Part shown: positions 1 to 14,153 of the stretch, piece by piece
Position numbering within the stretch: the stretch's first letter is position 1
Layout: each line of letters starts with the position of its first letter
DNA from: a virus
IMG/VR virus record: IMGVR_UViG_3300029930_000719
DNA: 14,153 nucleotides
Strand: one strand, 5' to 3'
Program-made: the position numbers and the translations under genes
Notes under the pieces: generated by a model
Database searches by the model: none
What the model was told of the DNA's origin: nothing
What the model saw: only the letters and a program-made list of their open reading frames with translations

Positions 1-95
1 GTCGCAGATCGCGTAGAATGGGAGCAATTGGCAAATCCTTCTTTATGGATGCTGCCGGTCTTGTTGTTGGTGCTGCTGCTGCAAGGGTACTAACA
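1..95. repeat. Terminal direct repeat, left copy, identical to 14059-14153. This is the circular closure or terminal redundancy of a 14,058-bp genome.
   Basis: The 95 nt compared base by base are identical at both ends. The repeat cuts through an ORF that is continuous across the junction. Confidence 0.95.
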
Positions 96-398
96 AGTTC
101 ACCAAAAATTCTCCCTAATCTTGATGCAAAAATTAAGAGTGCGGGTGTTATTGCAGTTGGTGCATTTTTCCCCAAATTTATGAAAGGTGCATTTGGAAAA
201 TCAATCGGAGATGGAATGATTGCTGCCGGTGGTCTTGGACTGCTTCAAGCTACAAACATTCTCGGAGCAATTGACAATGCAATGGATATTCCCGTTAGTG
301 TAATGGCAGGAGATGACCTTTCTGTAATAGCCGGTAACGGTTACGGACAAGACAATCTTTCAGTTCTCGCGGGAATGGATGAAGATTACAACTATTAA
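18..398 (+). CDS. 3' portion of the junction-spanning gene (true ATG at 14025). Arg-rich N-terminus followed by Gly/Ala-rich hydrophobic segments; candidate internal or membrane-associated DNA-binding virion protein.
   Basis: The frame is open from position 3, and the same frame at 14025-14153 supplies MARRRKKARSGRRRSRR upstream of Met-18. Hydrophobic stretches are GLVVGAAAARVL, AGVIAVGAFF and MIAAGGLGLL. DDLSVIAG and DNLSVLAG form a tandem peptide repeat, and the C-terminus is acidic. Confidence 0.8.
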   Translation: MGAIGKSFFMDAAGLVVGAAAARVLTSSPKILPNLDAKIKSAGVIAVGAFFPKFMKGAFGKSIGDGMIAAGGLGLLQATNILGAIDNAMDIPVSVMAGDDLSVIAGNGYGQDNLSVLAGMDEDYNY

Positions 399-422
399 TA
401 AACTTTAAAAATTAAATAGAAA

Positions 423-1082
423 ATGGCAAGTCAATTAGGTGCAAGGCTCGTATTTGATAATGCGAAGGCCCTTGTTCAAAATGCCGGGTTTAGTGTAGGC
501 CAGGCGGTTCTTTCTCAAAGCTACATTCGTAGTGAGGTTGCACTTTCTGCATCCACTACATCTTATCACATTCCTGTATTGGTAAACGATACGCAAACAA
601 GTGCATCCGCCTTCCCGACGGAACAAAGGTTGCAACTTCAGGATGCGTTCGTGGTGTCAAGTATAGGTATTTTTGTTGCTTCTCCGGGTGCTCCAACAAG
701 TACTGAATTTAAACTGCTTTCATACAATAACGATGTTATATTTTCGGGTGCTGGTGAAGCTGATGCACTTCTTTCTTTGTACAATGGGTCTTTGTCATGG
801 GTTGTGAACAATAGGCAAATAATTCCTGCATGGGATATTTATAGGCACTATAATGTTCCACAAACCCAAGAGGATACCCAAGCAGGTGGTAACACTGGTA
901 TTGACCAATTTGATAGCGAAAGCGGTTACTATCCTATGGAGCCTAACGCAGTATTGGTTGGTTCTAAAAATAATCAAATTACTATTAATCTTCCGGCAGC
1001 ACTTTCTGCGGTTAGACTTAATTCTCGTTTGGTTGTGGTTTTCAAAGGAATATTGGCCCAGAACGTGACTCCGGTGCGTTAA
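423..1082 (+). CDS. Hypothetical structural protein (219 aa). Candidate jelly-roll-type major capsid protein.
   Basis: Long ORF with an A-rich leader and a beta-strand-rich composition. It shares four colinear motifs with the next ORF. It is followed by a hairpin. The fold assignment is inference only. Confidence 0.85.
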   Translation: MASQLGARLVFDNAKALVQNAGFSVGQAVLSQSYIRSEVALSASTTSYHIPVLVNDTQTSASAFPTEQRLQLQDAFVVSSIGIFVASPGAPTSTEFKLLSYNNDVIFSGAGEADALLSLYNGSLSWVVNNRQIIPAWDIYRHYNVPQTQEDTQAGGNTGIDQFDSESGYYPMEPNAVLVGSKNNQITINLPAALSAVRLNSRLVVVFKGILAQNVTPVR

Positions 1083-1083
1083 T

Positions 1084-1101
1084 CCGGTATATATATATCG
1101 G
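1084..1101 (+). other. (TA)n-containing hairpin directly after the 423..1082 stop, followed by a locally GC-rich stretch.
   Basis: CCGGTATATATATATCGG has a 7-bp stem including one G-T wobble. There is no clear T-run, so a terminator role is uncertain. Confidence 0.3.
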
Positions 1102-1176
1102 AGAATGGCCGATGCTCCCGGCGGTTACGCTGCCAAATCAAGAAGGCCTATTTTTTAAACTTCATAAAAAACCAAT

Positions 1177-12704: not shown

Positions 12705-12726
12705 AATCACCTTTTTTCACCTTTAT
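12705..12726 (+). repeat. 22-nt element AATCACCTTTTTTCACCTTTAT, copy 2.
   Basis: Exact match to 1610-1631. It starts 1 nt after the stop at 12704, and its last two nt are the AT of the ATG at 12725. Confidence 0.9.
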
Positions 12727-13003
12727 GTTCAAAAAATATCCAGTAAAGGCCACAAAAAACGCAACCGAAGGATATATTTTGAACTTAATGAAAGGTAGCT
12801 GCAAAAATGCTACCGGAGTAAAAACGGCGATGAAATTGATAAATAGAGAGGCATTGAGTGAAAAATTTGTGAACAAAATGTACTCTTATTTGAAACGTGC
12901 GAAAGTTTATGTAGGTGAAAAAGATAGATGCGGTTACATATCGTATCAATTATGGGGGGGCAAGGAAATGTTGAAATGGTGTGAAAAAACTTTAAAAAAA
13001 TAA
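12725..13003 (+). CDS. Hypothetical protein (92 aa).
   Basis: ORF. From memory, the pattern GVKTAMKLINREALS..KMYSYLKRA...GYISYQLWGGKEMLKW resembles a widespread small phage-associated domain of unknown function. Confidence 0.65.
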   Translation: MFKKYPVKATKNATEGYILNLMKGSCKNATGVKTAMKLINREALSEKFVNKMYSYLKRAKVYVGEKDRCGYISYQLWGGKEMLKWCEKTLKK

Positions 13004-13005
13004 AC

Positions 13006-13977
13006 ATGACTGCAAAACAAAAAGCAGCAAGGGCAAAATTCAAAGCGGTTGTTGCCGAAGCAAAAAAGTTGAGGAAAAAAAATCCTAAATTAACCCAAGC
13101 ACAAGCGGTTAAACAAGCATTTGCAATTTCTTATTCAAAAAAAGGCACATCAAAAAAAGTTAGTGGAAATAAAGATTTTGCAAAGCAAAAAAAGGTTAAT
13201 GATGCAATAAATAAAAAATTTGCAAATTGGAGATATCCTGTACCGCCTGTTTATACCGGCAATTGGTCTGTTGCAACATGGACTAATTGGATAAAAAAAC
13301 ATGGTCAAAAAATTGGTGCAATAAAAATAGTTGAGAAAGGAGAAAGCAAAAAGACAAAACCAAAGGCAACTTATCAACAAGTTCGTAGCAAAAAAGGTAC
13401 ATTCAAAGGATTGAAAAAAGTGGGTAATAATAATGTAATAACTGCATCAAATTTTACAAGAATTTCAAATGATATTTACGGAAATCCGCGTTATGTGATA
13501 CATTATTTAAACATTAATAGTAATTATGAAAAGGCAGTTAAAATAGCCAATAAAATAGGCGGTAAAAAATTTAATAACAAACAATATGGTGGTGGAATAG
13601 TTTTTCAATCATATAATATTGATGAAACTGCAAGAAAATTAAATGAGGAAGTAAATAAAAGCAAAAAAATAGGTGCAACTTCAAAAGTAAAAGCCAAAAA
13701 AAGGAAGTCAAGTGAAATGCACACTGATACCAAAAGCCACAATGTAAATATTAGGGTGGTTAGTGGTAATATGACTAATTCTGCATTGGATCAGGCAAAT
13801 TATTTATCTAATAAAATTAGAAATGCAGAAGAACAAAGAGATAGGATTGCAAGTGGAATTAAATATAAAAAATATGATAAGTCAGATATTCCAAAGGCAA
13901 GAGGTATGGTAAAAAAATATAATCAATATATAAAGTCTTTAAAATATAGTTTAAAAGAACTAAAAAAACATATTTAA
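13006..13977 (+). CDS. Highly basic Lys-rich protein (323 aa). Candidate nucleic-acid-binding or internal protein.
   Basis: N-terminal MTAKQKAARAKFKAVVAEAKKLRKKNPKLTQAQAVKQAF with many KK runs. There is a central less-basic domain (YGNPRYVIHYLNI...GGGIVFQSY) and a helical basic C-terminus. Confidence 0.75.
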   Translation: MTAKQKAARAKFKAVVAEAKKLRKKNPKLTQAQAVKQAFAISYSKKGTSKKVSGNKDFAKQKKVNDAINKKFANWRYPVPPVYTGNWSVATWTNWIKKHGQKIGAIKIVEKGESKKTKPKATYQQVRSKKGTFKGLKKVGNNNVITASNFTRISNDIYGNPRYVIHYLNINSNYEKAVKIANKIGGKKFNNKQYGGGIVFQSYNIDETARKLNEEVNKSKKIGATSKVKAKKRKSSEMHTDTKSHNVNIRVVSGNMTNSALDQANYLSNKIRNAEEQRDRIASGIKYKKYDKSDIPKARGMVKKYNQYIKSLKYSLKELKKHI

Positions 13978-14024
13978 AAATCTTGGGATAGTTTCCCACA
14001 TAAACAAGTCAAAAAACAAAAAAA

Positions 14025-14153
14025 ATGGCAAGAAGAAGAAAAAAGGCACGTTCCGGCCGTCGCAGATCGCGTAGAATGGGAGCAATTGGCAAATCCTTCT
14101 TTATGGATGCTGCCGGTCTTGTTGTTGGTGCTGCTGCTGCAAGGGTACTAACA
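14025..14153 (+). CDS. 5' portion of the junction-spanning gene; continues as 18..398 after circular closure (full protein 143 aa).
   Basis: The ATG at 14025 gives MARRRKKARSGRRRSRRMGAIGKSFF.... Position 14076 corresponds to window position 18 and is in the same frame. Confidence 0.75.
   Translation, partial: MARRRKKARSGRRRSRRMGAIGKSFFMDAAGLVVGAAAARVLT
14059..14153. repeat. Terminal direct repeat, right copy (identical to 1-95).
   Basis: Base-by-base identity with 1-95. Confidence 0.95.

Follow-up and report, generated by a model that had tools for sequence, protein, structure and literature searches.

The 14,153 nt sequence of the IMG/VR virus record IMGVR_UViG_3300029930_000719 (hereafter the window, i.e. 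the whole stretch of DNA analysed) is best explained as the complete genome of an uncultivated tailless phage, most likely of Bacteroidota, which was assembled as a circular path, and we consider this reading highly probable. The first and the last 95 nt of the window are identical, which is the longest exact overlap between its ends, and no inverted terminal repeat was found there. Dropping one copy of the overlap leaves a unique unit of 14,058 bp with 34.4 % GC, as proposed by a first-pass annotation made from the sequence alone, and exact comparison bears out both the repeat and the unit length. The 95-mer occurs once per unit, within the coding sequence of a gene that spans the joint (junction gene J), and the chance of a random exact repeat of this length in 14 kb is negligible. 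Direct terminal repeats (DTRs) serve as a completeness criterion in CheckV and IMG/VR; the repeat found here is exact, not of low complexity and well beyond a minimum of 20 nt. The features at the joint are:

1 to 95, no strand: left copy of the end overlap, exactly identical to 14059–14153 and present once in the unit of the Logan contig described below.
14059 to 14153, no strand: right copy, i.e. the assembler overlap, judged by its identity to the left copy and by the other positions of the overlaps in relatives.
14025 to 14153, + strand: 5′ part of gene J, encoding an arginine-rich N-terminus (MARRRKKARSGRRRSRR), from the open reading frame (ORF) across the joint.
1 to 398, + strand: 3′ part of gene J, encoding Gly/Ala-rich hydrophobic segments and an acidic C-terminus, from the same ORF.

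The ORF starting at ATG 14025 runs in frame across the joint to the stop codon at 396–398 and encodes a protein of 143 aa, J, beginning with MARRRKKARSGRRRSRRMGAIGK, while the listed ORF 18..398 is the same protein read from its internal Met18 (ATG at window position 18). For comparison, IMG/VR was scanned for contigs encoding a relative of the 219-aa protein at 423–1082, which yielded 172 contigs, of which 80 were retrieved; all counts out of 80 refer to these loci. Protein J was present in 78 of them, with a median identity of 80.6 %. Since around 75 relatives with a full-length J ORF of 140–149 aa keep the N-terminus MARRKKRSAPSRRRKSRKMGAIGK, the conserved start codon before the joint is the genuine one, and the gene that the first-pass annotation saw restored by joining the ends is indeed an intact gene.

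Independent of the assembly in IMG/VR, a search with the exact 219-aa protein located the Logan contig SRR1047951_6405 (L001; 14,088 bp), which holds the same 14,058 bp unit with 0 mismatches. This contig starts at window position 7918, has an end overlap of its own of 30 nt (k−1, with k=31 in Logan) and reads unbroken across the joint of the window, where the intact 143-aa junction product was called. The two sequences are thus the same genome from two assembly programs, with different cut sites and different overlap lengths. Because the Logan overlap is 30 nt long and lies elsewhere, the 95 nt repeat reflects the cut of a circular graph path by the assembler, and not a physical terminal repeat at this position. 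Overlap length tracks the assembly throughout, i.e. 95 nt in the window, 30 nt in Logan and 52–127 nt in the relatives.

The 219-aa protein has 861 homologues in a set of 5.8 billion proteins; the best 120 share at least 62 % identity, and their longest contigs are mostly of 11–14 kb, with a few of 15.7 and 24.8 kb. Gene order in the relatives is strictly collinear and co-oriented, and is cyclically permuted among contigs. Seventeen near-full-length relatives have exact end overlaps and form units of 11,737–13,526 bp, with breakpoints scattered over 0.19–0.83 of the circle, and in 70 of the 80 loci a single contig carries the gene upstream of J, J itself and the 219-aa gene, so that the joint is spanned there as well as in the Logan contig. 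At 14,058 bp, the window unit is slightly longer than those of the relatives, and it has a longer fibre gene and additional genes. The genome is one of a large collinear family with sizes of about 11.7–13.5 kb, the 14,058 bp unit is a complete genome that closes without disrupting a gene, and the Logan contig and the relatives combined rule out a chimera and reveal a family whose genomes have no favoured end in assemblies. In its exact end overlap, its length and its gene-preserving closure the window does not differ from other complete DTR-type metagenomic contigs, and circular closure of an end-overlapping contig is routine in viromics. The identical Logan unit and the permuted, collinear relatives support the earlier description of a complete genome that is ‘circular or terminally redundant’, both alternatives of which are kept, as the assembly data are compatible alike with a physical circle, a circularly permuted linear molecule or a linear molecule with terminal redundancy or direct repeats.

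Two contigs extend beyond one unit. An IMG/VR contig of 16,600 bp (L031) makes around 1.35 turns round the unit by way of a variant of 76–90 % identity, and an ENA scaffold of 24,775 bp (L087; KRAE22-1...scaffold_1142) holds two tandem units with an offset of 12,407 bp, its capsid-candidate protein being found also on a separate contig of 12,534 bp. Such contigs are either assembly walks through coexisting strains or real concatemers.

All 25 annotated genes lie on the + strand and cover 91.7 % of the circle (three small ORFs at 8201–8612 are outside this count), and every tblastn match of window genes in the 80 loci was on the same strand, in agreement with the co-orientation noted in the first-pass annotation. 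For open frames on the minus strand, tblastn matches are no guide, since the antisense of conserved coding DNA matches anyway. On the + strand, G exceeds C in every 1 kb window, with a monotonic rise of the cumulative skew and no reversal, and A exceeds T in most 1 kb windows; this pattern fits genes all on one strand, unidirectional replication or both, and is compatible with ssDNA and dsDNA (single- and double-stranded DNA). The GC content is 27–30 % in the replication module and 35–42 % at the capsid-candidate genes. No tRNA genes were found in the window, and an Rfam search of it gave nothing at E≤0.1.

The circle is divided by two terminator-like hairpins, which sit in its two largest non-coding stretches:

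8056 to 8084, + strand: terminator-like hairpin followed by a run of seven T, closing the structural and lysis module after the stop codon at 8030, from a consensus scan.
10883 to 10910, + strand: terminator-like hairpin followed by a T-run, closing the replication module after the stop codon at 10856, from the same kind of scan.
11097 to 11104, + strand: TAATTTTG, matching the Bacteroidota-type −7 box TAnnTTTG, 24 nt before ATG 11128.

At the first position, 29 of 44 relatives have a hairpin of the form GGGGAAAAT...ATTTTCCCC with a T-run when only perfect stems are counted, and AAAAGGGGCAATTTGCCCCTTTTTT occupies the second position in the 12 relatives read, out of 51. Because both terminators are conserved in relatives, a layout in two modules is supported as anatomy: one at 8201–10856 with small proteins, a zinc-ribbon protein, a helicase and a basic protein of 63 aa, and another from 11128 across the joint to 8030 with the virion and lysis genes. 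The division into two terminator-bounded modules given in the first-pass annotation consequently stands, and its labels ‘early’ and ‘late’ are presumptive, being drawn from gene content only. The box at 11097–11104 probably represents the promoter of the structural module, as judged by its position and by the conservation of CAGTAATTTTG at the promoter-like site of relatives. Genome-wide, TAnnTTTG is not enriched (20 found versus 24 expected), and a scan for sigma-70 promoters gave 48 sites versus 61 in shuffled sequences, i.e. fewer than expected by chance.

The two genes that follow J encode the candidate capsid proteins:

423 to 1082, + strand: candidate major capsid protein of 219 aa, a single jelly-roll by its AlphaFold2 (AF2) model and weak Foldseek matches.
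1177 to 1602, + strand: second jelly-roll-like protein of 141 aa, candidate second capsid protein or penton, by AF2 and Foldseek.

These are the two most conserved proteins of the genome, and their genes adjoin. The 219-aa family comprises 964 cluster representatives at 50 % identity with E≤0.001, including 153 with E≤1e-30, and the 141-aa protein has 165 homologues, the best 120 of which share at least 62 % identity. AF2 models were built from the family alignments. That of the 219-aa protein, with a predicted local distance difference test score (pLDDT) of 77.8 and a predicted template modelling score (pTM) of 0.75, consists of one N-terminal helix and eight strands in a single barrel, and that of the 141-aa protein (pLDDT 74.9, pTM 0.70) shows a smaller beta sandwich with six resolved strands of at least three residues. 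Weak Foldseek matches were dominated by viral jelly-roll capsid and penton proteins, and the BFVD library gave a similar result. The best matches of the 141-aa model were the SPV1 capsid protein and the PBCV-1 penton, with E of about 0.02–0.03. The SPV1 capsid chain 6oj0_A ranked first in the PDB for this model and sixth for the 219-aa model, where its probability was the highest (probability 0.87–0.90, template modelling (TM) score 0.34–0.47 and E 0.02–0.04 for the SPV1 matches). Other weak matches included the FLiP penton, P23-77 VP17, HHIV-2, HCIV-1, PRD1/PR772 P3 and the coat proteins of circoviruses and bromoviruses, with E of 0.05–0.23 for VP17, HHIV-2 and HCIV-1 across both models. By sequence, the 219-aa protein matched nothing in Pfam, PHROGs or the PDB, including searches with the family profile. 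A mutual relationship of the two families was considered and rejected, as their profile–profile comparison revealed none. We therefore regard the 219- and 141-aa proteins, with modest confidence, as candidate single jelly-roll capsid proteins.

With regard to protein J (isoelectric point, pI, 10.1), its composition suggests a DNA-binding, membrane-associated virion protein. The Arg-rich N-terminus and the Gly/Ala-rich hydrophobic stretches would suit a virion with a membrane, in which J may tether or condense the DNA.

The replication module and the spacer behind it contain the following features:

8201 to 8287, 8284 to 8403 and 8400 to 8612, + strand: three small ORFs (28, 39 and 70 aa) with overlapping ATGA codons, opening the module.
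8554 to 9613, + strand: small genes of this module, one of which (9199–9417) encodes a zinc-ribbon protein with CxxC...CxxC.
9613 to 10572, + strand: RepA/DnaB-like helicase of 319 aa (Pfam AAA_25, E 4.8e-7; PHROG 239, primase/helicase).
10665 to 10856, + strand: conserved basic protein of 63 aa, the last gene of the module (53 of 80 loci, 69 % identity).
10918 to 11075, no strand: candidate origin, with three direct copies of GGTCAAA (at 10919, 10948 and 10958), a palindrome and inverted copies.

Of the three small ORFs, which have counterparts in relatives, the first two encode hydrophobic products, and that of the first has a conserved ...CFAD at its end. The ORF list gives only a TTG-started frame of 113 aa at 8201–8612. 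With the three ORFs, the 523 nt ‘gap’ downstream of the first terminator is partly coding. Apart from GMPKQGKS in the helicase, no credible Walker A motif was seen in six frames, which makes this protein the sole P-loop NTPase. Among GenBank phages, homologues of the helicase are found in Flavobacterium phages and unannotated human-gut contigs, and its plasmid homologues all stem from Bacteroidota (19 of 19 records, from Phocaeicola, Bacteroides, Parabacteroides and Prevotella). Four human faecal ‘Bacteriophage sp.’ contigs of 9.6–14.8 kb, i.e. MT836017 (45 % GC), MT836458, MT836227 and MT836591, were considered as family members and rejected, as they have only the helicase in common with the window (around 32 % identity) and neither tblastn nor profile searches found a homologue of the capsid candidate in them; they may represent another small-genome group with the same replication module.

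The architecture of the 271 nt spacer at 10857–11127 is conserved in 51 relatives. In order, it consists of the terminator, a conserved box, two to four direct (A/T)GGTCA(G/A)TTT repeats, a GC-rich palindrome, two or three copies of the repeat in inverted orientation and an AT-rich stretch that includes the promoter-like box. In the window, the palindrome is imperfect (10999–11036) and is followed by inverted TGACC copies at 11043 and 11063. The density of AGGTCA/TGACCT is 9.1 per kb in the spacer versus 0.5 per kb across the loci. Conservation of the palindrome was assessed by hairpin analysis of each sequence and by shuffling, since a MAFFT alignment was out of structural register. Perfect stems of 10–14 bp are present in 38 of the 51 relatives, with 31 different stem sequences (e.g. 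ACACCCGCCCCCC/GGGGGGCGGGTGT, ACACTTTCCCCCC/GGGGGGAAAGTGT and TCAGGGGTATACT/AGTATACCCCTGA), and a 10 bp stem appeared in 0.1 % of trials with shuffled sequences. Because 31 different stems are found among 38 perfect palindromes, the symmetry has been kept by changes on both arms, and the lack of a T-run behind the palindrome speaks against its being an intrinsic terminator and excludes this role. The arrangement of iterons, palindrome and inverted iterons is a candidate for a dyad-symmetric replication origin, and we propose that it may be bound by the helicase or by the neighbouring 63-aa protein. The last 80 or so residues of the helicase, outside the AAA_25 match, would at a guess form the DNA-binding domain. 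As an alternative, the palindromic element could be an operator of the adjacent promoter.

The remaining genes of the structural module are, starting downstream of the capsid candidates:

1644 to 2354, + strand: conserved acidic protein of 236 aa (pI 4.5) with the tract EEDEDEEDEEEED (68 of 80 loci).
2361 to 3082, + strand: a pair of small proteins of 153 and 86 aa, with transmembrane segments at the N-terminus, in a variable region (homologue in 1 of 80 loci).
3095 to 3487, + strand: conserved protein of 130 aa directly upstream of the fibre gene (59 of 80 loci; no family match).
3498 to 5915, + strand: fibre or spike protein of 805 aa with a C-terminal intramolecular chaperone domain (Pfam Peptidase_S74, E 1.3e-15; PHROG tail-fibre families).
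5918 to 6692, + strand: conserved protein of 92 aa together with small ones of 53, 67 and 53 aa, two of them hydrophobic, at the expected holin site.
6694 to 7335, + strand: membrane-anchored protein of 213 aa with the tyrosine/dual-specificity phosphatase signature HCLWGADRT (CX5R motif; weak Pfam DSPc/PTP).
7332 to 8030, + strand: weakly endolysin-like protein of 232 aa with a C-terminal hydrophobic tail (PHROG 315 endolysin, E 2.9e-5).
11128 to 12704, + strand: proteins of 142 aa (N-terminal hydrophobic segment, weak LEA_2) and 383 aa (61 and 74 of 80 loci, respectively).
12725 to 13977, + strand: 92-aa protein and lysine-rich TreK-domain protein of 323 aa, directly upstream of J (44 and 43 of 80 loci, respectively).

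For the acidic 236-aa protein, which matched no family in Pfam, PHROGs or NCBIfam, a scaffold-like role is speculation. Relatives have a fibre version of 466 aa, and in these genomes the set of the 92-aa and small proteins lies directly upstream of a Phage_lysozyme gene, in the place where the window has the phosphatase-like and endolysin-like genes (6694–8030). The endolysin-like protein is specific to the window genome (0 of 80 loci), and the phosphatase-like protein, whose DSPc/PTP matches are below the curated cut-off, has a homologue in 1 of 80 loci; a phosphatase within a lysis cassette is unusual. The 383-aa protein has a weak transglutaminase-like N-terminal domain and hydrophobic segments, and it is, together with the 323-aa protein, the largest among the unassigned ones. 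The latter matches Pfam Phage_TreK (E 2.4e-22); its 330-aa homologue in L087 and L088 was recorded with a DnaJ domain (PF00226), which Pfam did not detect at E≤0.01 in the window protein (13006–13977). Among PDB sequences, no match was found for the helicase, the lysin-like protein or the 383-aa protein. Judged by the hydrophobic segments of several proteins, the virion possibly contains an internal membrane.

No match was found for the whole genome among GenBank phages by megablast, nor for the 219-, 141- and 383-aa proteins by tblastn (50,697 records for the 219-aa protein). Likewise, the capsid-candidate family had no match in 72,556 PLSDB plasmids, PHROGs, Pfam or PDB sequences. In 185,579 species genomes there was one match, on a stand-alone contig of 11,144 bp in a metagenome bin labelled Umea1, and the family has therefore not been seen as a prophage. 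Rare Shine–Dalgarno sequences and A-rich upstream regions are typical of Bacteroidota. Here, a Shine–Dalgarno core precedes 1 of 25 genes and the upstream regions contain 52 % A, and together with the helicase homologues and the −7 box this makes a host from Bacteroidota likely. No description of the group was found in the literature, the coverage of which is incomplete; the ‘Charybdis elements’ of a preprint were considered and are unrelated marine elements of 4.6 kb.

A virus, as opposed to a plasmid or prophage, is indicated by the S74 fibre, the endolysin-like protein, the lysozyme genes of relatives and the jelly-roll models. It does not resemble Caudoviricetes, as Pfam, PHROGs and NCBIfam revealed no HK97 capsid, portal or terminase, nor Bamfordvirae/Tectiliviricetes (PRD1, PM2, Autolykiviridae and FLiP-type capsids), as the capsid candidate is modelled as a single barrel of eight strands and sequence and profile comparison with solved double jelly-roll proteins gave no match. 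A packaging ATPase of the FtsK/HerA type was not found either, the only protein with a Walker A motif being the one that matches AAA_25 and primase/helicase. A rolling-circle Rep was absent from the Pfam, PHROG and NCBIfam matches, which small or divergent Reps could escape, and NCBIfam added nothing to the Pfam and PHROG matches.

Several groups of tailless viruses are nevertheless similar in part. SPV1 of the Portogloboviridae has a circular genome, no dedicated packaging ATPase and a possibly membrane-bearing virion, and shares small single jelly-roll proteins with the window, as far as weak fold matches indicate; it differs in its archaeal host, the lack of sequence similarity, unrelated replication genes and Foldseek E values of 0.02–0.04. 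The Matsushitaviridae and Sphaerolipoviridae (P23-77, with a circular genome of about 17 kb, HHIV-2 and HCIV-1) have two adjoining genes for small jelly-roll proteins, which in Helvetiavirae are vertical single jelly-roll capsid proteins. The window may have a similar pair: two adjacent conserved genes are modelled as jelly rolls (pLDDT 75–78), with weak fold matches (E 0.05–0.23) and without profile similarity to each other. In contrast to the window, however, these viruses have an FtsK/HerA-type ATPase gene beside the capsid genes, and the fold matches have E of 0.05–0.1. PM2 combines a small circular genome (about 10 kb) with spikes at the vertices, numerous small membrane proteins and modular operons, and the Corticoviridae and Tectiliviricetes (PM2- and PRD1-like) resemble the window in their small circular genome and modular layout; they differ in that neither a double jelly-roll capsid nor a P9-type ATPase was detected in the window. 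The Finnlakeviridae (FLiP and phiCjT23) are tailless, lipid-containing phages of Bacteroidota with small circular genomes and no packaging ATPase (covered in part by PMC9719478). One window protein weakly matches the FLiP penton in fold. The FLiP-type phages differ by an ssDNA genome of around 7–9 kb, a double jelly-roll capsid and a rolling-circle Rep, as opposed to 14 kb, a capsid candidate whose 219 aa and eight strands do not suffice for a double jelly-roll, and a helicase in the window. PM2, P23-77 and FLiP, and also SPV1, may be seen as the closest functional analogues. The fold similarities are too weak for assignment to a lineage, and membership in any of these groups is not supported by the features tested, because no double jelly-roll protein, FtsK-type ATPase or recognisable Rep was found.

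Based on these data, the following picture of the phage can be proposed. A circular graph path would have been cut arbitrarily inside gene J, which would have left the same 95 nt at both ends of the contig. Transcription of the structural module would start at the promoter near 11100, run across the joint and end at the terminator at 8056–8084, yielding first the virion proteins, i.e. J, the pair of jelly-roll-like proteins, the fibre and several others with hydrophobic segments, and then the lysis proteins. The second module (8201–10856) would supply small proteins and the RepA/DnaB-like helicase and end at the terminator at 10883–10910, and the iterons, palindrome and inverted iterons between the modules would serve as the origin, to which the helicase or a protein acting with it would bind. 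The virion would have an icosahedral jelly-roll capsid, possibly with an internal membrane, and, with no FtsK-type packaging ATPase, its genome would be condensed by J rather than pumped into the capsid.

Several points weigh against this picture. The evidence for closure is at the level of assemblies, which a circle, a permuted linear molecule and a linear molecule with terminal repeats all fit, and the Logan contig possibly derives from the same sample or reads as the window, so that it represents an independent assembler and not necessarily independent data. Both ssDNA and dsDNA in the virion are compatible with the results. For neither capsid model was there a PDB match in Foldseek at E≤0.001, the TM-scores being 0.3–0.5, and only two BFVD matches reached this threshold, one to an uncharacterised and one to an unnamed protein. 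Finally, hydrophobic segments are the sole indication of an internal membrane, and the origin and the promoter were assigned by conservation and architecture only.

It is tempting to go further and to speculate that the family represents an undescribed lineage of family rank or above, with an icosahedral, possibly membrane-containing virion built from two small single jelly-roll proteins, and with a circular genome of around 12–14 kb that is packaged without an ATPase and condensed by J, i.e. a bacterial counterpart of the archaeal portogloboviruses that is widespread in environmental metagenomes. We put this forward tentatively, as a possibility that is more doubtful than probable.

Less likely still, the packaged molecule may be linear, either permuted by headful packaging from concatemers or with fixed terminal repeats that were collapsed by the assemblers, in which case the circle would exist only in the graph or as a replication intermediate. 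The scattered breakpoints, the k-sized overlaps and the contigs extending past one unit fit this explanation equally well, and the tandem two-unit contig is also what concatemers would give. It is made unlikely by the fact that Pfam, PHROGs and NCBIfam detected no terminase, portal or headful machinery and that there is a single P-loop protein. PM2, FLiP and P23-77 are small tailless phages without headful machinery that package circular genomes.

A non-viral circular element, such as a Bacteroidota plasmid or a helper-dependent satellite using the capsid of another phage, appears very improbable. True, the one replication gene assigned with confidence encodes an AAA_25 helicase of plasmid type, which has homologues on plasmids of Bacteroidota; sequence searches recognised neither a hallmark capsid gene nor a packaging gene, and the size is typical of satellites. 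The helicase is, however, the only gene with plasmid homologues next to fibre, lysin-like and jelly-roll genes; the S74-chaperone fibre, the lysis genes and the two strongly conserved jelly-roll models speak for a virus, Pfam, PHROGs and NCBIfam recognised no integrase, relaxase or partition gene, and the capsid candidate is absent from the 72,556 plasmids. An integrated prophage or a satellite like phage-inducible chromosomal islands (PICI) or P4 is disfavoured by the lack of an integrase match and of an integrated copy in the 185,579 species genomes, as opposed to 172 relatives in IMG/VR.

That the closure itself is an assembly artefact, chimera or repeat-driven false join has nothing but general possibility in its favour and is next to impossible, given the identical unit from a second assembler with a different breakpoint, the single copy of the 95-mer per unit, the joint gene that is intact in around 75 relatives and the gene order kept across the joint in 70 of 80 loci.

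The preferred reading, i.e. a complete genome of a tailless phage, would make the window a full-genome example of a large group of such phages that has apparently not been described before. In practice, circularity makes the contig usable as a reference for the whole genome. Sampling of tailless phages is sparse, and the present family is both large and diverse, without a match in GenBank phages, PHROGs, Pfam or the PDB. The complete genome, with its putative capsid genes and origin and its probable host among Bacteroidota, offers a start for isolation, structure determination and classification, and it permits testing whether phages with dsDNA can do without a packaging motor in assembly.

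As a further observation, the motif CACCTTTTTTCA occurs four times in the genome when one mismatch is allowed, versus 0.28 expected, i.e. at 1613–1624, 10626–10637 and 12708–12719 on the + strand and at 10921–10932 on the − strand. The three + strand copies lie in short spacers just before the genes at 1644, 10665 and 12725, and the sequences at 1601–1631 and 12696–12726 are 90 % identical over 31 nt. The motif is possibly an internal promoter or an RNA element.

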